Made by a program: the position numbers and the translations under genes
The notes under the pieces: generated by a model
Database searches by the model: none
Told to the model about the DNA's origin: nothing
What the model saw: the letters and a program-made list of their open reading frames with translations, nothing else
Source: Minisyncoccota bacterium
GTDB taxonomy: Bacteria > Patescibacteriota > Minisyncoccia > Phycocordibacterales > UBA9973
NCBI GenBank assembly: GCA_041665925.1
Contig: JBAYHW010000006.1
Coordinates: forward strand, 1-46,082
DNA: 46,082 bases
Direction: 5' to 3'
Shown: positions 17,347 to 38,438 of the stretch, in pieces
How the letters are laid out: each line of letters starts with the position of its first letter
How positions within the stretch are numbered: the stretch's first letter is position 1

Positions 17347-19284
17347 CTATTTTTTCTTTTTTATATTCCTTGTAAGAGCCCGGAGAACAATATCAAGCTC
17401 CATTGTAGCCACCCCCACAACTGTATCTGCTCCTCCGTAGTATATATAGAGTAATTTATCTTTTATCACCATCCCGCAAGGGAAAACAACGCTGTTTACT
17501 ACTCCAACCTTTTCATACTGCTCTTCTGGCTCAAATATTGGGTCTGTAGTGCGCGCTAAGACAATAGCCGGATCATTGAGGTCAAGTAGTACTGCCCCAA
17601 CCCTGTAAGTATGATGGTTCTTAGAAATACCATGATAAAGGAGCAGCCAACCATATTTAGTCTTCAGTGGTGGAGCCGAAATGCCAACTTTTAAACTATC
17701 CCAGGAGTTTATTCGCGGGCCAATAATTCTGATACATTTATTAACAGTTTCTGTTTTAAAATTAAGTGTTTTTATATAATCTCCACATATCTCATCCCCG
17801 ACTCGGTGAAGGATAAAATACTTACCTTGGGTTTTTTCTGGAAAAATACAAGTATCCTTATCATCCAGACCTGCCGGAGTAATGAGAATTGGTTTTTCCC
17901 ATTGCCAATTTTTCTGTAGAAAATTTTTCTCCAATATGGAAGTTATAGCTACTCGTGGTGGACCAATGCCATCAAAGGCGGTATAACACATATAAATGGT
18001 TTTCTCTATCTTAGTGAGTCGTGGGTCTTCGCAACCTGAATTCCCGCCTGTAACCTTTTTCAATTCAAAATCTTCTCTAGGTATGTAAACAGGAGCACTT
18101 TGTCTTTCATCAATAGTGACACCATCTTTTGATGATGCATATCCTATAGATGAAGTATTGTCTTTAGATAGTGCCCTGTATAAAATGTGGGTCGTGTTTT
18201 TTATTCGCAATGCCGCAGGGTTAAAAGTAGCTTGAGCTTCCCAGGCATTGTTGGGATTTGGAGTAATAATTGGATTTTTAGCAGATCTAAGAAAGTGCCA
18301 CTTTGGTGCAGTTTCGGGACGCATGGTCCCAATAAGGTCGGTAATGTTCACGTGAGCCATGCAAGTCGTTGTGTCTGCAGCCCCATAATATATAAAAAGT
18401 GTGTCTTTTTCTAAGATTGCGCCAGATGGGAAAACTATGTCAGGCACGTGCCCTAAAAGTTCGTAGGATTCTCGCGGGACTAATATCGGACCCCTGGTGT
18501 GTCCTGTAATTTTTTGTGGGTTATTGACATCCAACAACACAGCCTCCACCCCGAAAATTCTCTCAAAATTATTTCCCGAAGGAAAGTAATTTTGAATATG
18601 AGAATATAGAAACAACCAACCATGAGAAGTCTTTATGGGGGTCGCCCCCACTTCTACGTGATCAGATGCAACTCTTTTGAGATCAATTGTATGTTTATCA
18701 ATATTGTTATACCAATCTGCCCAAAAATTTTGATCCCACAATTCTTCAATATTCTCCACTTGGGCCAGTGCGATTTTCGCAGGAGGCATATCGGTATTCA
18801 CTGTTAGGATTACAGTAACTTTTCCGTCTACCCGCTCCGGAAAGAGTGTCATAGCTTTAGCATTAAACGGAGTCACCAAATGTCTTTCATTTACTTTCTT
18901 TAAGTCTTTAGAAATTGCGACAGCGACTTTAATTCCACTCGCCTCAAAGGGGTATTTAGAAAGTGCTGTATAAAATATATAATAATTACCTTCAAAATAC
19001 GTAATTCTGGGATCTTCACACCCGTATTTTTCCCAATCTTCTGTGGGAGTAATAAATGGCACCCGTTCTTCAAAATGAATATTGTCCTTGCCTTTACCTA
19101 TACCTATAATAGAAAGTTGTTCTGGAGTACGAAGTTTGTCTTCTGACCCTATGGCTCGATATACCCCGTAATACGTTTTACCTTTTTTCACGACACTCAT
19201 ATTAAAAGTCGCAAAATCTTCCCAATAATGGTCTCGGTATGGATCAAGAATTGGATTATGGTGCGATCTTTTTAATACGTACAT
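17347..19284 (-). CDS. Tandem two-domain GH130-like glycosidase / mannoside phosphorylase
   Basis: Two repeats, each with ATFN, GCEDPR, LFPE and YYGAAD/YYGGAD motifs. Confidence 0.85.
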   Translation of the reverse strand: MYVLKRSHHNPILDPYRDHYWEDFATFNMSVVKKGKTYYGVYRAIGSEDKLRTPEQLSIIGIGKGKDNIHFEERVPFITPTEDWEKYGCEDPRITYFEGNYYIFYTALSKYPFEASGIKVAVAISKDLKKVNERHLVTPFNAKAMTLFPERVDGKVTVILTVNTDMPPAKIALAQVENIEELWDQNFWADWYNNIDKHTIDLKRVASDHVEVGATPIKTSHGWLFLYSHIQNYFPSGNNFERIFGVEAVLLDVNNPQKITGHTRGPILVPRESYELLGHVPDIVFPSGAILEKDTLFIYYGAADTTTCMAHVNITDLIGTMRPETAPKWHFLRSAKNPIITPNPNNAWEAQATFNPAALRIKNTTHILYRALSKDNTSSIGYASSKDGVTIDERQSAPVYIPREDFELKKVTGGNSGCEDPRLTKIEKTIYMCYTAFDGIGPPRVAITSILEKNFLQKNWQWEKPILITPAGLDDKDTCIFPEKTQGKYFILHRVGDEICGDYIKTLNFKTETVNKCIRIIGPRINSWDSLKVGISAPPLKTKYGWLLLYHGISKNHHTYRVGAVLLDLNDPAIVLARTTDPIFEPEEQYEKVGVVNSVVFPCGMVIKDKLLYIYYGGADTVVGVATMELDIVLRALTRNIKKKK

Positions 19285-19287
19285 AAT

Positions 19288-20406
19288 TTATTCGCCTTTC
19301 TTTAGTTTGGAGACTTTGTGACTTTTGAGTTCTTCTAAGAATTTATCCAGATTCGCCGTAGCCACACAAGACACTGTGTCTGCTCCGCCGTAATATACGA
19401 AAAGTTTCCCGTCTTTTACTACAGCTCCACAAGAATAAACAGTGCCAGCTTTATAACCCTCATTTTCATACCACAGATCTGGGGCTAATATCGGATCTTC
19501 GTTTTTGTAAAGAATCTTAGTTGGATCTTTGCTGTCTAAAATCATTGCCCATAATTTGTATCTACCTGGATCATTTTTTTCAATTTTATGATACAAAATA
19601 AGCCAACCTATTTTAGTCTTAATTGGTGAAGGACCAATTCCACGCGTCAAGCCATCGCGCAGTTTCCAAAGAGGACTATTTTGGTGCACACTGTGAATAA
19701 ATTTTTTACCATCCAATTCTCGCAGATCCTTAAAGTAATCAATCATTATTTTAGGAGAGATTGCATGTAAAATTGCATATTTCCCTTTAATTTTTTCTGG
19801 GAAAAGCGCCCAATTCTTATGTATCTCTCCCGGAGGGGAAATTAACACCGGCTCTCGCCAAGAAAAGCGTTTGTTTATAAAATCTTCCAAACTTACAGAA
19901 GTAAGTGCAATTCTGACTGACCCCCAACCATCAAAAGCGGTATAAAGCATATACACCATACCTCCTAAGAGTGTTAGCCTTGGGTCTTCGCACCCACCAC
20001 CCCAACCGCCCCCAGAAGATGTGATTTGTGGTACTGATTTCCTGTCAGGATTAAATTTAGCTTTCGCATAATACGCGAGCTGTTTAGAATTGTTGTCGAA
20101 ATATATTCCATCGTTGGATTTGGCATATCCCAGGACTGACATATCTCTGTCTCCTATCGCCCGATAAATAACGTGTATCTTACCGTCGCTGTAAATAGCG
20201 CTCGGATTAAAGGTGGCTTTCGACTCCCAGTAAACGTTCTCCGCTGGTTCTATTATGGGGTTTTTCTTTGACCTTTCTAGTTTCAGTGAAGATTTCTTTT
20301 TTAGTATTTTTCTCTTTAGAACTGTTCTCTTTTTAGCAGTTTTTACTGTTTTTTTCTTTATGACCTTCTTTTTTATGATTTTTTTCTTCTTTTTTAAGAC
20401 AGCCAT
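19288..20406 (-). CDS. GH130-like glycosidase with a Lys-rich N-terminal extension
   Basis: ATFNPSA, GCEDPRL, HKNWALFPE, YYGGAD; first ~45 aa are polybasic. Confidence 0.85.
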   Translation of the reverse strand: MAVLKKKKKIIKKKVIKKKTVKTAKKRTVLKRKILKKKSSLKLERSKKNPIIEPAENVYWESKATFNPSAIYSDGKIHVIYRAIGDRDMSVLGYAKSNDGIYFDNNSKQLAYYAKAKFNPDRKSVPQITSSGGGWGGGCEDPRLTLLGGMVYMLYTAFDGWGSVRIALTSVSLEDFINKRFSWREPVLISPPGEIHKNWALFPEKIKGKYAILHAISPKIMIDYFKDLRELDGKKFIHSVHQNSPLWKLRDGLTRGIGPSPIKTKIGWLILYHKIEKNDPGRYKLWAMILDSKDPTKILYKNEDPILAPDLWYENEGYKAGTVYSCGAVVKDGKLFVYYGGADTVSCVATANLDKFLEELKSHKVSKLKKGE

Positions 20407-31586: not shown

Positions 31587-31600
31587 AGAAATATTATAAC

Positions 31601-31630
31601 AAAAAACCCATACGAAAGTATGAGTTTTTT
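31601..31630 (-). terminator. Terminator hairpin, probably the original tRNA-Asn terminator displaced by the insertion
   Basis: AAAAAACCCATAC-GAAA-GTATGAGTTTTTT, 3 nt outside the left direct repeat. Confidence 0.75.
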
Positions 31631-31633
31631 GTT

Positions 31634-31642
31634 TTTGGCTCC
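31634..31642. repeat. Distal att core (9-bp direct repeat)
   Basis: TTTGGCTCC, identical to 37689-37697. Confidence 0.8.
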
Positions 31643-31749
31643 CTCTAGTAAGCAAGTTCAGAACTCTTAATTGGAATGCTATCAAAAGCGAACTGCAATT
31701 TAGTGGAATACTTTCTCTATACCAACAAGAAACGGCTTTTAGTTTATAA
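31636..31749 (+). other. Stranded C-terminal coding tail of the serine recombinase; in frame only after circularisation
   Basis: Reads WLPLVSKFRTLNWNAIKSELQFSGILSLYQQETAFSL*, with no start codon of its own; begins with the same TGG CTC C as the integrase end. Confidence 0.75.
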
Positions 31750-31936
31750 GTTAGTACCAGTCGTTAGCATGGTTACGTTCTAGTACCATTCAGAACTCGT
31801 TGATACCAGATGGGATAAGAGTGTAAACGAAAGGGTGTCTGCTTCTTTCGTTTTACGAATTAAGGGTAGTGGGTGTTTTCTTTCTCGGACATTTTTATTT
31901 GGCGGGGATGCCCTAATATATTTAGAAAATTTCCAG

Positions 31937-33217
31937 CTATTTTTTCTTGTCATTCAGGTCTTCAAACTCTGGATTCACTGTTTCTTCTTTTTTCTTAGAC
32001 CCCATCGGTGGAAGAGGTTCTATTTTTTTAGGAGGCGGAAGTTTTTTGGGGAAGATTTTTACCCTCGTCTTCTCATCTTCTTTGGTTACTTCTTGTTTGT
32101 GTTGCCACCTTTCGCCGCGAGGAGCCAAGTATGTAATTCCGTAATCAAAAAACGTATTGTTTTTAGTTTCAACAAAAATATGTGGGCATTTAGCAATGGT
32201 ATCTCCTAGTGGGTCTATTTCAACAATTCTTTCATAAGGAATCACAGCCTCTATCTCAAAGAAAGCTTGATTATCGCGTTCGATTGTATCAAGAAAATCG
32301 TGTGCACGGCGAAATGAATCATCGTAATCTTTAGGTTTGTTCCAAAAATCTTCGTGACCCCAGGCTAGATTCACTTCTTCAGTGTAATCCCACTCAAGAA
32401 GCTTCATTCCATTAAAATCAATTTTTCTATAAGCTGGATACCTCCTGGTCATTAGCCTAATTCCTTCATGAGTATGACCCATAAAGTAATAGGTTTTCCA
32501 TCGAGGATGCTCTTTGAAATCTGGTATTGCTCCGCTATAGGGATAGTTTGTATCATTGGCATCACGAACCAAAACTTCCATAAATGATTCGCGGTCTACA
32601 GCACCAAGATGTTTGACCACTTTTCTTTTAGTTGCTAATAAGCTACGAATTTGGGTGGCGACAGTTCGTCTTCTGATTATTAGAGAAATACCAAAATACC
32701 CATAGAGCAAATTGTCATTCTTTGGTTGGAATAACATATCCTCTAAATCCGCCTTTCCCCATAAATAAAATTCCTGCACGCCCTTTTCGCGCATTTTTTC
32801 TCTGAATGCATCACGTGTCTTTTTTGAGAAATCACAAGGTGCTGCAAAAATAACTCCATGGGGAATATCCGCTCCCCTGGGTATCATTTCATCAACATAT
32901 TTATTAATTTTTGCAGGAGCAATAGTTTTTTCCCTTTTACATTGAATCTGCCAGAGTCTGTCTAATGAAGAGGATATCAGCTCTTCCTCTAATTCATCCT
33001 CACTATCTTTTGTGGGCTGTTGGTTAGTTGCGCCAGCTACTTCAAAACCTCTTGCATCATACCCATCATCTGCACCTAGTCGTCCTGTAGGCTCAAGTAA
33101 ACGCCATTCCCTAAAGTCATATATAAGCTGGCGTACTAAATCCTCGAAACGATGAGGTTCAAGGTCATTGAAGGGTAAAGGATTCAAGGTCCTGGTTGTT
33201 GTAGGAGTTTTTTTCAT
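31937..33217 (-). CDS. Restriction-endonuclease-like (Mrr-type PD-(D/E)xK) protein, putative defence cargo
   Basis: RFEDLVRQL, G-x-x-GADDGYDARG, WQIQCKR in the N-terminal third; C-terminal domain unrecognised. Confidence 0.7.
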   Translation of the reverse strand: MKKTPTTTRTLNPLPFNDLEPHRFEDLVRQLIYDFREWRLLEPTGRLGADDGYDARGFEVAGATNQQPTKDSEDELEEELISSSLDRLWQIQCKREKTIAPAKINKYVDEMIPRGADIPHGVIFAAPCDFSKKTRDAFREKMREKGVQEFYLWGKADLEDMLFQPKNDNLLYGYFGISLIIRRRTVATQIRSLLATKRKVVKHLGAVDRESFMEVLVRDANDTNYPYSGAIPDFKEHPRWKTYYFMGHTHEGIRLMTRRYPAYRKIDFNGMKLLEWDYTEEVNLAWGHEDFWNKPKDYDDSFRRAHDFLDTIERDNQAFFEIEAVIPYERIVEIDPLGDTIAKCPHIFVETKNNTFFDYGITYLAPRGERWQHKQEVTKEDEKTRVKIFPKKLPPPKKIEPLPPMGSKKKEETVNPEFEDLNDKKK

Positions 33218-33223
33218 TACTAC

Positions 33224-33232
33224 TGTGGATAA
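33224..33232 (-). promoter_or_regulatory. Perfect DnaA box 6 nt upstream of the nuclease gene start
   Basis: TGTGGATAA on the plus strand. Confidence 0.45.
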
Positions 33233-33443
33233 CCAATTGGCATCTAGTGCTATCTAGTACATTCGGTTACGTTCTTATTCTATTCCACTTGTCTTTACTT
33301 TACAATGGTATACACGGTAAAATTACATTGTTCATCGAAAATAATCCCAGAGTGAGGAGATAAATTATCAAATCACTACGTGCTTCAGTAAGATGAAGCA
33401 TTGCGTCGGGCGAAGGGAAACCCGCTAGGTAGGAATCATTGAG

Positions 33444-33528
33444 AAGCTACCATTTCAGCTCACATTTTTGTGGGATGCGATGGTAGCTTTTTACTTTCTG
33501 CAAACCGCAACTAATTGAGTTGCGGTTT
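33444..33528 (+). promoter_or_regulatory. Tandem stem-loops upstream of the rep operon (candidate origin or attenuator)
   Basis: AAGCTACCAT/ATGGTAGCTT (33444-33453/33480-33489) and AAACCGCAACT/AGTTGCGGTTT (33502-33512/33518-33528) followed by a T run. Confidence 0.55.
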
Positions 33529-33530
33529 TT

Positions 33531-33704
33531 ATGTTATCTACACAAGCAAAAAAAGAAATTAAGCATATTGAGGAAAAACCAAACAAAGTTGGTTTGACCC
33601 GAGAAGACAATCAGAAACTTGTTGATGTCTTCGCGTTGCTTATTAAAGTAGATAAAAGAATAAGCCCCCACCTTTATAAGCCTAATAACGCTACAAATGA
33701 TTGA
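33531..33704 (+). CDS. Small hypothetical protein, 57 aa (not in the ORF track)
   Basis: MLSTQAKKEIKHIEEKPNKVGLTREDNQKLVDVFALLIKVDKRISPHLYKPNNATND*; stop overlaps the rep start. Confidence 0.65.
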   Translation: MLSTQAKKEIKHIEEKPNKVGLTREDNQKLVDVFALLIKVDKRISPHLYKPNNATND

Positions 33705-34854
33705 TTCAATATGCCTTTCAATTCCGTGTAGTGAAGTAAAGGACATTGAGCCTAATGCCCAGAGCATTACTGCATGGGAATTACATTCCAAGACTAAGCG
33801 ATACACGAAGTATGTAAAAAATGTTTCTGTAAATAAATCAGGAACTTACTACCCTCATCTGACAAGGTACACGAAATGGTTTAACCAAGAAGCCAACGTA
33901 CGCATAGAGTTCTCTGTTCCAAAACTGTTTTTTCAAAACAATCTCGATGAACTAGAGGATGCAGATTTCCTAAATGTTATTACTGTTCTACAAAAACGTT
34001 TACATGAAATGGACGTATCTATTTCCAAAGAAGCCCTGGTGAATAGTGTGGTAAGTGGGGTCCATTTCTCAAAGAATATCGTCTTGGAAAATGGATACAC
34101 AACCAGTTATCTTATAAGTGAAATGAATAAAATAAATCTTAGGAAAGTTTTTGATTTTACTCGCGCAAAGTATACAAATGATGGTCAAAGCCTTTATGCT
34201 CACACGGCTTCGCATGAACTTATTATTTACGACAAAGTAGCGGATATACTGGCAAGTGAAAAAAGAGCTATGGATAGAGGTCAATCTGCCTATCAGCGAA
34301 GTATCTTTGCGGGGGTAGAAAAGAAGAATTTGCCCGAAGTCATACGCTTTGAAGTACGACTGGTTCGTAAACCGAAAATGAATAGCGTTCTCGGAAAAGT
34401 TGGACATAGTAAAAATCCAACTTTTAAGGACGTATTCAATTCTCAATTAAGTCGGAAAGTTATTTTGCTTTACTGGCAAGAAATTATAAAGGCTGGAGGC
34501 AGTGTGGCCTTCTCAATCCCTCTAAGTAGCAAAGACATGTTGCGGGCTATCTTTATGGCGAATAAGGACATGAAGGCAAAGCAAGGAATTTACCTAGCTG
34601 GGTTATCAATTATTGCTAGAGATGGGATAAGAGAACTGCGCTCAATAGTTTCAAAGCAATCAGGAGAACGGACATGGTACCGAATTTCAAAAGATATTGC
34701 GCTCGTAAATAGTCTTATTACACAGAATAGAGTCAGAGACTGGGTACGACAGATAGACCACAAACTTGCAAATTATAAAACCTATAGAACAGGTAGGTTA
34801 TCCACCTTACCAATTTGTAATGTAAAGAAAAGTAAAGTATCATCATTGATATGA
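33697..34854 (+). CDS. Phage/plasmid replication initiator, gene II/X / Rep_trans-like (rolling-circle type)
   Basis: MIDSI, RIEFSVPKL, VHFSKN, LIIYDK (candidate catalytic Tyr), IRFEVRL. Confidence 0.7.
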   Translation: MIDSICLSIPCSEVKDIEPNAQSITAWELHSKTKRYTKYVKNVSVNKSGTYYPHLTRYTKWFNQEANVRIEFSVPKLFFQNNLDELEDADFLNVITVLQKRLHEMDVSISKEALVNSVVSGVHFSKNIVLENGYTTSYLISEMNKINLRKVFDFTRAKYTNDGQSLYAHTASHELIIYDKVADILASEKRAMDRGQSAYQRSIFAGVEKKNLPEVIRFEVRLVRKPKMNSVLGKVGHSKNPTFKDVFNSQLSRKVILLYWQEIIKAGGSVAFSIPLSSKDMLRAIFMANKDMKAKQGIYLAGLSIIARDGIRELRSIVSKQSGERTWYRISKDIALVNSLITQNRVRDWVRQIDHKLANYKTYRTGRLSTLPICNVKKSKVSSLI

Positions 34855-35414
34855 AAAGAGTAATTATCGTACATCAGTGGATGGCTGGAGCTGAAGCAGA
34901 TTGGCGGCCTTGGCTAAAAAATGAGTTAGTCAAACAAGGTTATGAGGTGTTGGTACCAGATATGCCAGAAATTGATACTCCTGTTATTGATAAGTGGGTG
35001 AATCATTTATCAACCATTGTGGGCATCCCCGACGAAAACACTATTTTTATTGGACATAGTATTGGATGCCAAGCAATTTTGCGCTATTTGGAAACCATAG
35101 ATGTATCTATTGGAGGGGCAATATTCGTTGCTGGTTGGTTTACACTCACTGGTATGGAAGATGAAGAAGTTGAAAAAATAGCTGAACCATGGATAAAAAC
35201 TCCAATAAATTTTGAAAGGATAAAGGAGGTATTGCCAAAATCTATTGCTATCCTTTCTGATAATGACCCCTATGTACCCTTGGAGAGTACAAGAATGGTG
35301 TTCGAAAAAGAGCTGGATACAAAAGTAACCGTTATTCCTAACGGTGGACATATTACTGCCGATGATGGTTTTACAGAGTTGCCACAAGTTCTTAGTGAAC
35401 TTCAAAAATTATAA
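34851..35414 (+). CDS. Alpha/beta hydrolase, RBBP9/YdeN family
   Basis: GHSIG nucleophile elbow, SDNDPYV, GGH triad. Confidence 0.88.
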   Translation: MKRVIIVHQWMAGAEADWRPWLKNELVKQGYEVLVPDMPEIDTPVIDKWVNHLSTIVGIPDENTIFIGHSIGCQAILRYLETIDVSIGGAIFVAGWFTLTGMEDEEVEKIAEPWIKTPINFERIKEVLPKSIAILSDNDPYVPLESTRMVFEKELDTKVTVIPNGGHITADDGFTELPQVLSELQKL

Positions 35415-35418
35415 AAAT

Positions 35419-35595
35419 ATGAAAAACAAAGAATTTTATACTGCAAAAGACTTGGCTGACAAATTAGGAGTAAATATTATGACTATTTATCGTTATATAG
35501 GAGCTAAGAAACTCAAAGCATACAAGTTAGGAAAAGAATTTAGGATTGAGAAAAAGGACTTCAACAACTTCCTTAATAAAGTGAAAACAAGGTGA
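35419..35595 (+). CDS. Excisionase/MerR-like HTH DNA-binding protein (candidate recombination directionality factor)
   Basis: FYTAKDLADKLGVNIMTIYRYIGAKKLKAYKLGKEFRI; start MKNKEF at 35419. Confidence 0.85.
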   Translation: MKNKEFYTAKDLADKLGVNIMTIYRYIGAKKLKAYKLGKEFRIEKKDFNNFLNKVKTR

Positions 35596-36200
35596 TTTAT
35601 ATGCCGAGCAAAGGTTACAAAATGAGCAAGGAACATAAAGACGCTATATCTAAGGCGCTAAAGGGTCACGTCTCTTCTGAGGAAACTAGAAGAAAGATTG
35701 GTCTGGCTAATAGAGGTGTTTGGATAAAGTTCAATTGTGATTATTGCGGAAAAGAAAATGAAGAGAAACAATCACATTATAAGAAAAAGGTACGACATTT
35801 CTGTGATGCAAAATGCTATGCATCTTTCGTAAAAGAAAAACAGCCATTAGGTGAAAAGAACGCGTATAAGGGAGTAAGGAAGATTGGTGAAAACAAACAG
35901 GTTTATCATCGCAATTATGTAAAAAATCATCCAGAAAATATAGCTCACTTAAAAGCTCGAAGATATGCACGAGAGCGAAATGCTGAAGGCAGTCACACTT
36001 TGGCTGAGTGGATTGCATTAAAACTTAAATACGATAATAAATGCATTCATTGTAAAGAGTTTAAGCCACTCACAAAAGACCACATCTTACCTTTAGCAGA
36101 AGGAGGTACAGACTATATTCACAACATTCAACCCCTCTGTCGAAACTGCAATAGCAAGAAATGGAAGAAATTGGACTACGTTATTTCCCAAAAATTATGA
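35592..36200 (+). CDS. HNH endonuclease with N-terminal NUMOD3-like repeats and a Zn finger
   Basis: HKDAISKALKGHVSSEETRRKIG; CDYC; CIHC...TKDHILP...GGTDYIHNIQPLCRNCNSKK; start is GTG 35592 or ATG 35601. Confidence 0.85.
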   Translation: MIYMPSKGYKMSKEHKDAISKALKGHVSSEETRRKIGLANRGVWIKFNCDYCGKENEEKQSHYKKKVRHFCDAKCYASFVKEKQPLGEKNAYKGVRKIGENKQVYHRNYVKNHPENIAHLKARRYARERNAEGSHTLAEWIALKLKYDNKCIHCKEFKPLTKDHILPLAEGGTDYIHNIQPLCRNCNSKKWKKLDYVISQKL

Positions 36201-37705
36201 AAGCAATAAAAGTCTCACGCGTATCAACAGAAGAACAAAAAGAAGCTGGTAATTCACTCCCAGCTCAAATTAAACGTATAGATGATTATTGCAAAAGAAA
36301 GGGCTTTGAGGTCATTCGCTCTTTTAGTTTTGATGAGAGCGCTTACAAAGATAAACGGGATGAGTTTGATAAGTTGGTTGAATATGTCCAAGACATTGCG
36401 AAGAAAGAAAAAATAGCAGTTTGTTTTGATAAAGTAGACCGTCTTTCAAGAAGTGTTTTTGATTCAAGAGTGGGCACTTTATATCAAATGTCCGTAGAGG
36501 GAAAAATTGAGCTTCACTTTGTTTCTGACAACCAGGTTTTGAACGGTAGTTTATCTGCAACAGAGAAAGGTGGTTTTGGTATGAGTCTTGTGATGGCAAG
36601 CTATTATTCAAATGCAATTAGTGACAACGTAAAACGAGCATTTGAACAAAAACGCAGAAATGGTGAATGGACTGGAGGGGTACGCATAGGATACAAGAAT
36701 GTATCACTTGATGTTGAGAAGAGATTAAGAAAAGATATTATTCTTGACCCCGACAGAGCACATCTAGTTCAAATGATATTTGAGCTTTATGCCACTGGAA
36801 ATTATTCGATGGAGGCAATTCGGGTGAAGATTACTGAAATGGGATTAAGAACTCGTGACGGAAACGTTTTATCGAAGAGTGGAATAGAAAACATTTTGAA
36901 AGATAGTTTCTTTTGTGGGATTGCTGTATCAAAGAAATACAACCTGACTTGGGTTCATAATTATCCTCGCATCACTACAAGGGAGATATTTGATAAGTGT
37001 CAAGAACTACGAGCAAAACGAAAGACATCACGCCCAAAATCTCTCTCAAAGGATTTTATATTTAAGGGTTTACTTAAATGTCAGAACTGCGGATGCTCAA
37101 TGAGTGCTGAAATTAAAAAGGGGCGTTTTGTTTATTACTCCTGTACAAATGCAAAGCGTATTTGTAAACGAGTATATGTGCCTGAAAAGACACTCCTTGA
37201 GCCTGTGTACGAGCTTCTGGGACGCTTTGAGAGCATTAAAGAGGAAGTTCAAGATGGCCTGGTTAGGGAGCTAAGGAAGAACACAGAATCAGAGGTGGTT
37301 TTCCATAAAGCCCAGATAAGTCGTATCACCAGTGAATATGAACAGATAAAATCGAAAGATGACAGGTTGCTAGAAAGGTATCTTGAAGACAGCACGAGTA
37401 TTACTAAAGATATCTATGACAAAAAACATCAAGAATATGCTGATGCACTCCAGGTCCTAGAGATAGAACTTAGTGAAAATAGAAAAGCGGACTATGACTA
37501 CCAAACCACGGTAGCTACTGTGGTTTCTGTTGCTCGTCGCGCAAAGCAAATCTTTGAAGGTTCTGAACCATCTGAAAAACGAGCACTTTTAAACTATATA
37601 CTTCAGAACCCAACCGTAAACGAAAAGAAGCTATGTTTTTCAATAGCTTCTCCGTTCAATCTAGTCCTAGACCTAGCTGATAGTCCTATTTGGCTCCGGG
37701 GGTAG
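36197..37705 (+). CDS. Large serine recombinase (integrase); 3' end reads into the tRNA
   Basis: RVSTEEQ catalytic motif, DKVDRLSR, recombinase domain, CQNC...YYSC Zn ribbon, coiled coil; ends TGG CTC CGG GGG TAG antisense to the tRNA 3' end. Confidence 0.93.
   Translation: MKAIKVSRVSTEEQKEAGNSLPAQIKRIDDYCKRKGFEVIRSFSFDESAYKDKRDEFDKLVEYVQDIAKKEKIAVCFDKVDRLSRSVFDSRVGTLYQMSVEGKIELHFVSDNQVLNGSLSATEKGGFGMSLVMASYYSNAISDNVKRAFEQKRRNGEWTGGVRIGYKNVSLDVEKRLRKDIILDPDRAHLVQMIFELYATGNYSMEAIRVKITEMGLRTRDGNVLSKSGIENILKDSFFCGIAVSKKYNLTWVHNYPRITTREIFDKCQELRAKRKTSRPKSLSKDFIFKGLLKCQNCGCSMSAEIKKGRFVYYSCTNAKRICKRVYVPEKTLLEPVYELLGRFESIKEEVQDGLVRELRKNTESEVVFHKAQISRITSEYEQIKSKDDRLLERYLEDSTSITKDIYDKKHQEYADALQVLEIELSENRKADYDYQTTVATVVSVARRAKQIFEGSEPSEKRALLNYILQNPTVNEKKLCFSIASPFNLVLDLADSPIWLRG
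37689..37697. repeat. tRNA-proximal att core (9-bp direct repeat)
   Basis: TTTGGCTCC, overlapping the tRNA-Asn GGAGCCA 3' end and the integrase W-L codons. Confidence 0.8.
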
Positions 37706-37731
37706 GGATCGAACCTACGACCAATCGCTTA

Positions 37732-38286
37732 CACTTATCCTCTTATTACTAAAAGGGATGGACTATATCATCTTCATATTTTGAAAATAAAATTTTCAAA
37801 ACTTAGAAGCAAGGCGCTTCGACTGATTTTGAATCAGGCTACTCCTCGAAAGGATAGTCTCTGAACCTGCCCTAAACTTTAGGGATTGGCTGCTGATTGC
37901 CCTCTGGTGAGGGTTTCCAGCAATTCACCTTGTTTTCGATCTATTTTTCAATAGAAAGCTGCGTTATACCTGACTCGACTTCTCTGTGACAATTTGCACA
38001 AAGTAGCACACACTTATATAATTCTTTTTGCACGATACTCCACGCACGAGTGTATCCCTTATCACCAACCCCAAAACTTTTATCTTTGGAATTTATATGG
38101 TGAAGTTCAAGGGCACCAATACATTTTGTATATCCACAAATTTGGCATTTGCCGCCTTTGTATTCAACTGCAAGAACTTTTATTTTCTTGCGTCGTTTTG
38201 CAACAGCTTTAATAAGTGCTTCTCGTCTATCGGCATATTTCCTATTATCTGGCATAAATCTATCATACCAAAGGGTGGAAATTTCC
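37732..38286 (-). ncRNA. Group I intron, 555 nt, at anticodon position 35/36
   Basis: 5' exon ends in U and the intron ends in G. P AAUUGCUGGAAA (37925-37914), Q AAUCAGCAGC (37898-37889), R GUUCAGAGACUA (37866-37855), S AUGAUAUAGUCC (37771-37760); IGS GCAG (37962-37959) pairs with exon CUGU with a U-G pair at the splice site. Confidence 0.92.
37941..38255 (-). CDS. Intron-encoded HNH homing endonuclease
   Basis: CQICGY...LELHH...CVLLCANCHRE; lies in the L1 loop, and its last codons encode the IGS; ATG 38255 preferred over GTG 38288. Confidence 0.85.
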   Translation of the reverse strand: MPDNRKYADRREALIKAVAKRRKKIKVLAVEYKGGKCQICGYTKCIGALELHHINSKDKSFGVGDKGYTRAWSIVQKELYKCVLLCANCHREVESGITQLSIEK

Positions 38287-38438
38287 ACAGGCGACCGCTC
38301 TACCGCTGAGCTACCCCGGAATTTATTCTTTTTTCTAAGGAACTTTACCTATATTATCAGAAAACACAGAAAAAACAACAAAATTTGTGCCCCTTCCCTG
38401 ACCACAAATCCTTTATGAATATGATGTATAATAGAAAC

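Follow-up and report, generated by a model that had tools for sequence, protein, structure and literature searches.

Integrase genes that are rewritten by the reaction of their own product have been described in a few systems. One is the SPbeta-like Bacillus phage vB_BsuS-Goe14 (Goe14), in which the serine integrase is truncated by 131 amino acids (aa) upon integration (Kohm et al., 10.1101/2021.11.22.469490). Its authors put forward, as speculation, that integration is carried out by the long form and excision by the short form, a proposal for which they offer no test (10.1101/2021.11.22.469490). In the myxophage Mx8 (IntP/IntX) the attP site lies inside int, and integration into a tRNA gene at its 3' end swaps the integrase's C-terminus (Tojo et al., 1996, J Bacteriol 178:4004, as cited in PMC4383910). 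The integrases of SSV-type archaeal viruses and plasmids carry the recombination site in the open reading frame (ORF) of the integrase, where it matches a tRNA gene (PMC7253208; PMC8371274). The Islander paper of 2014 stated that serine integrases are not known to target tRNA genes (PMC4383910), and a large study mining large serine recombinases (LSRs) makes no mention of tRNA targets or of attP inside an ORF. Here we describe a locus on contig JBAYHW010000006.1 (assembly GCA_041665925.1) of a Minisyncoccota bacterium; the whole stretch analysed, 46,082 nucleotides (nt), is referred to as the window. Positions 31634-37697 of the window make up a small plasmid-like integrative element of 6.05 kb in its integrated form. 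Its family is widespread in Patescibacteria, and its LSR gene (int) is cut by the integration of the element into tRNA-Asn. No paper on this family was found in the literature searched, the coverage of which is incomplete.

Judged from the sequence, the att core lies within the coding sequence of int, and integration alters the gene and strands a coding fragment at the opposite end of the element. The 9-bp direct repeat TTTGGCTCC is present in exactly two copies in the window, both on the plus strand. The left copy (31634-31642) is the attL core and is what remains there of the tRNA 3' end, which reads GGAGCCAAA on the minus strand; the right copy (37689-37697) is the attR core and covers the I-W-L codons of int together with one base, the first, of the codon after them. 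From its first ATG the int ORF extends from 36161 to 37705, and database gene calls start at 36197 (MKAIKV..., P0001, 502 aa). This integrated short isoform (36197-37705, plus strand) ends with ...ADSPIWLRG*, and its final 15 nt lie antisense to tRNA-Asn: the codons TGG-CTC are the reverse complement of GAGCCA, that is the last acceptor base, the discriminator and the CCA end, and the terminal RG* is the acceptor and T stems read backwards. When 37697 is joined to 31643 the frame is preserved and the product ends ...SPIWLPLVSKFRTLNWNAIKSELQFSGILSLYQQETAFSL*, a gain of 33 aa (547 vs. 514 aa from the first ATG, 535 vs. 502 aa from the likely start MKAIKV). The severed tail of 35 codons (PLVSKFRTLNWNAIKSELQFSGILSLYQQETAFSL*, 31643-31749, plus strand) shares a reading frame with int in the circular form only. 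Between the stop at 31621-31623 and the TAA at 31747-31749 its frame is open without any ATG, GTG or TTG, and the remaining two frames of the region stop after 1 and 8 codons. An earlier reading of the window, made from its letters and ORFs (the original prediction), had placed the att core in the last codons of the recombinase with an end SPI-WLRG* taken from antisense tRNA, had joined 37697 to 31643 in frame to gain 33 aa, and had noted an open tail frame of 37 codons without a start. All of this is borne out by the sequence and by the translated join, with the coordinates right; the figure of 37 counts from the TGG at 31636.

The enzyme is an LSR with Resolvase, Recombinase and Zn_ribbon_recom domains. 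The N-terminal catalytic domain matches PF00239 (E = 2.4e-17, residues 19-170), followed by matches to the Recombinase domain PF07508 (1.7e-13) and the four-Cys zinc ribbon PF13408 (5.6e-9) and to the PHROG integrase family phrog_95 (E = 2.4e-73). The R8 V9 S10 motif and the Cys columns are invariant in the family alignments.

Both ends of the element have the hallmark of a tRNA island, an intact tRNA at one end and a 9-bp remnant of the tRNA 3' end followed by the native terminator at the other. Read on the minus strand, the left copy of the repeat runs straight into AACAAAAAACTCATACTTTCGTATGGGTTTTTTGTT, a 16-pair hairpin with a T run, which is the displaced terminator of tRNA-Asn (31598-31633, minus strand, directly beyond the left core); beyond it lies the start of a DUF998 gene (31586-31023). 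Deletion in silico of 31643-37697 yields tRNA-Asn-CCA followed by the terminator, a normal tRNA locus with the reconstructed attB ...CCCCGGAGCCAAAAACAAAAAACTCATACTTTCGTATGGGTTTTTTGTT. Terminator-like hairpins are also frequent in the reconstructed left arms of attB at other loci of the family.

The target gene, tRNA-Asn(GUU) (37691-38320, minus strand), is intact through CCA despite the insertion. It is interrupted in the anticodon loop by a group I intron and consists of a 5' exon TCCGGGGTAGCTCAGCGGTAGAGCGGTCGCCTGT (38320-38287), an intron of 555 nt (38286-37732; Rfam RF00028, 88 bits, match 37739-38019) and a 3' exon TAAGCGATTGGTCGTAGGTTCGATCCCTACCCCCGGAGCCA (37731-37691), all on the minus strand. 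Inside the intron an HNH homing-endonuclease ORF is found on the same strand (38288/38255-37941), with domain and PHROG matches. Because the intron splits the gene, a default ARAGORN scan of the window missed the target, its sole call being an unrelated tRNA-Ala. With introns allowed the placement of the intron was ambiguous, giving Thr-TGT or Asn-GTT; the exons spliced in silico fold as a 75-nt tRNA-Asn(GUU). We call the tRNA Asn because the intron-less orthologous sites are all Asn and because the U1:A72/G73 end fits Asn. Intron-bearing tRNA-Asn genes occur at further Patescibacteria loci (L005, L028, L055, L027, L041, L047), with introns of about 212-265 or 551-569 nt.

It should be noted that the repeat and the open tail frame are weak by themselves. 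The 9-mer alone is not significant (0.35 copies expected, at least 2 copies in 5 of 100 shuffles), and an open run of 34 codons is only mildly unusual in DNA which around the element has about 33-41% GC. Their significance comes from comparative data on the family.

The circular state of such elements is seen directly in assemblies. L003 and L004, from two samples and sequencing runs, are contigs of 9,436 nt each with a terminal overlap of 30 nt; they are rotated by 7,918 nt relative to each other and 100% identical, so that they describe one circle of 9,406 bp, which carries a long-form int. P0244, a long-form integrase of 546 aa, is found on 13 contigs. Eight of these were fetched (L085-L092, eight samples, JGI and Logan assemblies), and they all map with 0 mismatches and differing break points onto a single circle of 7,628 bp, with terminal overlaps of 127 and 30 nt and with two contigs extending 7-9 nt beyond the unit. 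On the circular episomes the int ORF crosses attP uninterrupted, and the long ORF is what gene callers annotate. A short form, P0248 (...RPIWLRR), on an NCBI contig of 3,822 bp, falls into the same 90%-identity cluster as P0244. At L045 an int with the C-terminal peptide of P0248 lies beside tRNA-Asn on a contig of the same size as that of P0248. By this match L045 would be the contig of P0248, and if it is, one element lineage has been seen in both states.

The severed tail is found again at other integrated copies. In tblastn searches with tail peptides, more than 35 loci had a tail on the strand of int, 5.4-11 kb upstream of its stop; the tail of the window matches distal tails elsewhere, reaching 84% identity across 25 aa (E = 3e-15). 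In 21 of 21 elements, namely 20 fetched loci and the window, the long ORF is rebuilt in frame at a shared core of 6-11 bp, and the cores always contain GGCTC or a one-base variant of it. Intersecting the cores of L017 and L060 (GCTCCCC) with those of L048, L053 and L075 (TGGCTC), taken as they stand, confines the crossover to GCTC; a scan for inverted-repeat symmetry in attP gave a weak maximum near the core. Two tail-like segments lie upstream of a single int at L018 (4550-4648 and 5452-5553), L028 (3057-3125 and 3738-3839) and L031 (3761-3823 and 4537-4626), a pattern suggestive of leftovers from earlier insertions, or from tandem ones, at one and the same tRNA.

A homologue search with the joined 547-aa protein gave 1,653 relatives at E < 1e-20. 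The C-termini of the top 120 homologue clusters, which are 65-84% identical, were assigned to classes by a script. Before the junction these proteins share the stretch ...SPFNLVLELAxSPNWL. In 49 of the 120 a stop follows within 3 residues of the Trp-Leu junction (RG*, PG*, RR*, PR* and the like), while 35 read through into ...QDSNLRPID.., the antisense of the tRNA T-arm (GGTTCGAATCC backwards). The tRNA-derived endings include WLRG*, WLPG* and WLRR* as well as read-through such as WLRGQDSNLRPID. The canonical long tail, PLVDKFRTxNWxxIKS(D/E)LQFSGILxLFPxLSLQN after WL, is present in 10 clusters; other tails with a related xxDxxRT motif make up 13, and the script left 13 unassigned. All ten canonical long forms are found on contigs of at most 9.4 kb, while 35 of the 83 short and read-through forms are on contigs longer than 12 kb (Fisher p = 0.012).

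In a scan of one genome per GTDB species 275 relatives were detected, and 80 loci were kept; most of their record titles are Patescibacteria or candidate phyla radiation, and a few are labelled with other phyla. The int ORFs are full length in nearly all of these loci (query residues 1 to about 500), although the search favours intact copies. A tRNA overlaps the 3' end of int in 66 of 85 sources. It is tRNA-Asn(GTT) in 48 of these. A further 7, among them the window, are called Thr-TGT only owing to the ambiguous placement of the intron by ARAGORN, and the others are Gln, Asp, His or Pro. No close relatives were found in curated phage and plasmid collections, where the best identities are 32-33%. 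The closest LSR of the phage collection is on MT837677.1, an unannotated 6.4-kb 'Bacteriophage sp.' contig from human faeces (32% over residues 1-501); this contig may represent a small element akin to the present ones, from Saccharibacteria of the gut or mouth.

Tandem arrays are seen at L025 (10001-19735) and also at L023 and L073. In L025 the integrase of the family, Int_A, continues in frame into a different tail, ALTDDFRTIDWAKEYPYPTISLGEIKALVC*, and behind it lies a second element, the LSR of which is 30% identical (ORF 17951-19675) and ends with ...SLLPR* over tRNA-Asn at 19663-19735. The second LSR family thus shares the design with attP inside the ORF, and Int_A gains a chimeric tail in the arrays. 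Such array-derived chimeras probably explain some of the other tail classes (WLRIVEDVRT...).

Codon analysis over 24 tails shows that the tail is maintained as protein. Entropy at the three codon positions is 0.86, 0.57 and 1.19, and the ratio of nonsynonymous to synonymous differences (pN/pS) is 0.42. In codons 10-27, which lie beyond the likely attP arm, pS is saturated at 0.785 with pN at 0.31, and residues I14, L18, F20, S21 and G22 are almost invariant. This codon-periodic conservation at saturated synonymous sites indicates selection at the protein level. The tail motif D-x-F-R-T-x-N/D-W is retained even in the 30%-identical second LSR family. An AlphaFold2 (AF2) model of the long-form homologue P0010 (71% identical, alignment of 70 sequences) gives the tail as three short helices with a predicted local distance difference test score (pLDDT) of 71-78. 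Every canonical domain precedes the tail, including the long helices 355-402 and 408-433 of the coiled-coil insertion. The top Foldseek matches of the model are the SPbeta, LI (4KIS), Bxb1 and phiC31 integrases (E values between 1e-16 and 1e-9).

The original prediction had further proposed two isoforms set by the recombination state, which may differ in stability, directionality or Xis interaction. The existence of the two isoforms is supported by the circles with the long form and the integrated copies with the short form, while a functional difference between the two is something we infer. It had expected the C-termini of homologues to fall into a tRNA-derived class and a WLP..FRT..NW class, and both were found together with matching in-frame distal tails. 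As signs against itself it had named the lack of a conserved in-frame distal tail and a crossover lying elsewhere; the tail turned out to be conserved under protein-level constraint, and the crossover maps to the shared core, within GCTC. The 58-aa helix-turn-helix (HTH) protein it had mentioned is real (35419-35595, plus strand). It is an excisionase-family DNA-binding protein (TIGR01764 'excise', 41.8 bits vs. a cut-off of 28.8; HTH_17 in episomal relatives) and a candidate directionality factor or regulator.

We put a probability of roughly three in four on the reading that the element sits in the 3' end of tRNA-Asn, severs its own int and uses the tail as a functional module whose loss alters the enzyme. 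The sequences show that recombination with the tRNA 3' end cuts int, which in the integrated state reads into the antisense tRNA and stops after two codons (RG*). Integration strands the last 35 codons 6 kb away without a start codon, and excision rejoins them. The circular form encodes a 535-aa enzyme with a conserved, predicted helical tail, and the integrated form a 502-aa enzyme which keeps the catalytic, recombinase, zinc-ribbon and coiled-coil parts. Loss of the tail, a functional module of the episomal enzyme on this proposal, would change activity, directionality or level; the tail-less enzyme would most likely be shifted or restricted to excision with the HTH protein, or its level would be altered. 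In the phiC31 integrase the extreme C-terminus contacts the recombination directionality factor (10.1101/2025.05.02.651858), and insertion of ICEKp1 at tRNA-Asn displaces the tRNA terminator and alters int transcription (PMC13023037). Together the two make a functional effect of tail loss plausible. Between 37691 and 35345 on the minus strand no terminator-like site was found, and int is convergent with the tRNA, so that read-through from the tRNA would be antisense to the whole of int. Unterminated tRNA-Asn transcription could then be a second state-dependent effect.

A more ambitious version holds that the tail is a built-in directionality or activity module, that integration converts the integrase to an excision-competent or silenced form, that the design exists in at least two LSR families at tRNA-Asn and that arrays give a third, chimeric isoform. 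We offer it only tentatively. If it is true, the element senses its own state via the coding sequence of its recombinase, with no separate regulator.

Several points weigh against a functional module. The two isoforms keep all domains known to be required for LSR catalysis and could behave alike. The replacement C-terminus is set by the host tRNA and ranges from 2 to about 40 aa, and thus carries no designed function. A degenerate pattern for attB, attP, attL and attR of this element gave 0 matches to metagenome contigs, so that neither a circle nor an empty site of this individual element was found. Tail codons 4-8 (GAC AAG TTC AGA ACT), about 11-25 bp from the crossover, are near-invariant even at their third positions; a second role as the P' arm of attP, where the zinc-ribbon domains of LSRs bind, is probable, and part of the tail conservation would then be at the DNA level. 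The selection on the tail could also act wholly in the episomal phase and be uninformative on the truncated form. Finally, a replication role for p385, a backbone protein described below which may be a novel replication initiator, is weakly supported.

The rival which survives best regards the arrangement as a by-product of compaction. It states that attP overlaps the end of int only since a small element must mimic the tRNA 3' end, that the isoforms are equivalent and that there is no switch; the tail would be of some general benefit to the protein, as in folding or solubility, or of little at all. The integrity of all canonical LSR domains in the short form fits such a view, as do the arbitrary, host-dictated C-terminus of the integrated enzyme, the heterologous tail tolerated in tandem arrays and the existence of other tail classes in the family. 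A dispensable tail would, however, be expected to decay or shorten, and what is found is purifying selection on the protein at codons 10-27, well past the likely attP arm, a D-x-F-R-T-x-N/D-W motif kept at 30% identity between LSR families, and ordered helices in the AF2 model. We think this rival possible but unlikely.

Next comes suicidal integration of the SSV kind, in which loss of the tail inactivates the enzyme and excision takes place only through full-length episomal integrase in trans, the integrated copy otherwise being a dead end. Integrases that disrupt themselves have been published (PMC7253208 and PMC4383910), episomes of the present family are abundant in metagenomes, and the remnant or duplicate tails at L018, L028 and L031 suggest decaying copies. 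This is at variance with the small size of the loss, just 33-35 of about 535 residues and these outside the known functional domains, and with the retention of the excisionase-family HTH gene in integrated copies. The full-length int genes of nearly all kept loci also speak against it, with the bias of the search towards intact copies in mind. Suicidal integration is in our view improbable.

It could also be that the tail is conserved as DNA only, as the P' arm of attP or another site, with an incidental frame and with the short form as the true integrase. The near-invariance of codons 4-8 at all three positions, so close to the crossover, is what such a site would leave. It does not account for the three-base periodicity, nor for I14, L18, F20, S21 and G22 being kept in codons 10-27, where synonymous sites are saturated, nor for an open frame that joins in frame in every one of the 21 elements and is annotated as a long ORF on episomes with demonstrated circularity. 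This explanation is very improbable and is largely excluded, which among the by-product, suicide and DNA-only explanations is the case for this one only. That the 9-bp repeat is due to chance and int merely abuts a tRNA gene, for which the shuffles would leave room, has a negligible probability and is refuted by the comparative data: a terminator adjoins the left copy, a homologous tail begins exactly after it, 20 other loci have the identical architecture, and the backbone is common to circular episomes.

The backbone of the family consists of p385, the 58-aa excisionase-family HTH, variable cargo and the LSR. Among 85 loci p385 is present in 70, the HTH in 68 and both together in 67. Compared with the episomal contigs L001-L003 the identity is 48-53% for p385 (ORFs of 372/405 aa), 60-79% for the HTH and 65-71% for int. 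In the window p385 (33697-34854, plus strand) is a conserved backbone protein and putative replication initiator, preceded by a 57-aa small ORF (33531-33704, plus strand) that is kept in some relatives. It has 669 relatives (P0121-P0240 among the homologues). The p385 of the window gave no Pfam or NCBIfam match at the thresholds used, one weak match among PDB sequences (6r2m, E = 0.00099, a glycoside transferase), and, with a confident AF2 model (predicted template modelling score 0.74), no PDB fold match. Three unnamed viral matches were found in BFVD (E about 5e-9), and some members of the p385 family show weak Rep_trans and Phage_CRI matches; the name given in UniRef is 'Replication initiation protein'. 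An inovirus identity, prompted by PMC6813254, was dropped: the element has no Zot/pI-like ATPase and no such PHROG matches.

The cargo of the window comprises a 57-aa ORF (31780-31953, minus strand) and a 426-aa ORF (31937-33217, minus strand), both without family match and the latter not conserved in related elements, as well as a serine hydrolase of the alpha/beta fold (34851-35414, plus strand; PF06821, E = 2.4e-24), of which none was found in the other loci. Between the HTH gene and int lies a free-standing HNH/NUMOD3 endonuclease gene of the homing type (35592-36200, plus strand; PF14279, PF01844, PF07460 and PHROG HNH families), whose stop overlaps the start of int (ATGA). It is absent from 84 of 84 related loci and looks like a recent insertion of a homing endonuclease into the element. 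The episomes L001, L003 and L085-L092 carry Tsp45I with an N6_N4 methyltransferase, an MmeI-like type IIG enzyme, a D12 methyltransferase and DUF3800. This cargo, rich in restriction-modification genes, suggests that the elements spread defence systems among Patescibacteria.

Many contigs of metagenome-assembled genomes (MAGs) stop at or within about 120 nt of the int/tRNA junction, or start about 120 nt before the tail; contigs broken near the ends of the element are L008, L009, L026, L081 and L083, and L017, L019, L055, L059 and L071. Assembly seems to be interrupted at the ends of the element, which mixed populations of integrated, empty and circular forms would lead one to expect, and MAGs may under-represent or mis-bin elements of this kind.

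Serine integrases are valued since an accessory factor sets the direction of the reaction. Recombination which rewrites the C-terminus of the enzyme would be a simple and testable route to control of directionality or dosage without extra parts. The mining of LSRs from integrated elements would collect proteins that are truncated or extended by antisense tRNA, as in 84 of the 120 top clusters, and may misjudge their activity. To our knowledge few plasmids and few genetic tools have been described for Patescibacteria; abundant circular and integrative elements of 5-11 kb with a highly conserved tRNA-Asn target are a starting point for integration vectors in these bacteria. The present LSR family is also an exception to the 2014 statement on serine integrases and tRNA genes (PMC4383910).

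How the locus stands among the known systems can be stated as follows. The element resembles ICEKp1 and the mycobacteriophage BPs in that the recombination state alters a regulatory or recombination gene because att lies in or beside that gene. BPs, which Broussard and co-workers reportedly described in 2013, is said to have integration-dependent immunity, with a repressor that is rewritten by integration and thereby loses a C-terminal degradation tag. The gene crossed by attP in the present element is the integrase and not a repressor, and the element is therefore not of the BPs type. As in ICEKp1 the terminator of tRNA-Asn is displaced by the insertion; the ICEKp1 switch is, however, transcriptional with int co-oriented with the tRNA, whereas here the coding sequence is rewritten and int is convergent. 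BPs and ICEKp1 also use tyrosine integrases, and the present enzyme is a serine integrase. In Tn4451 and Tn4453 the expression of the LSR TnpX is said to depend on the topology of the element, with a promoter assembled at the circle joint, as Lyras and Rood reportedly found in 2000. The circular intermediate likewise creates something that is absent when integrated, but it is the 3' end of an ORF that is assembled here and not a promoter.

Integrases of the SSV type share with the present one that integration partitions the integrase gene and excision restores it. They are archaeal tyrosine recombinases divided into two substantial parts, which is taken as inactivating, whereas the extreme C-terminal tail alone is separated here; the enzyme being a serine and not a tyrosine recombinase and 35 codons being displaced, the locus is not of the SSV type. 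With Mx8 it has in common that phage and prophage, here the circle and the integrated copy, encode different isoforms of the integrase. The Mx8 enzyme is a tyrosine recombinase and ours a serine recombinase; Mx8 reportedly has tRNA-Asp as its target and exchanges a C-terminal segment that is much larger.

Goe14 is likewise an LSR system, with attP inside the enzyme's own C-terminal coding region and with the C-terminal piece left at the other end of the prophage. The original prediction had known of no characterised serine-integrase case. As a statement of novelty this is too strong, the truncation in Goe14 having been reported (10.1101/2021.11.22.469490), although Goe14 is not functionally characterised either. 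The differences are that 33-35 aa are lost here against 131 aa in Goe14, that the target is the 3' end of tRNA-Asn and not spoVK, and that a plasmid-like Patescibacteria element of 5-11 kb takes the place of a large Firmicutes phage. There is no close sequence kinship between the two, the best match in the phage collection being the unnamed 6.4-kb contig at 32% identity. Goe14 is a single phage, whereas a family-wide design is documented here together with circles and with selection on the tail. Self-rewriting integrase genes were thus already known from Mx8 and the SSV type and, for serine integrases, from Goe14; what is added here is a widespread family of LSRs which target tRNA-Asn and carry a short, conserved, self-severed tail.

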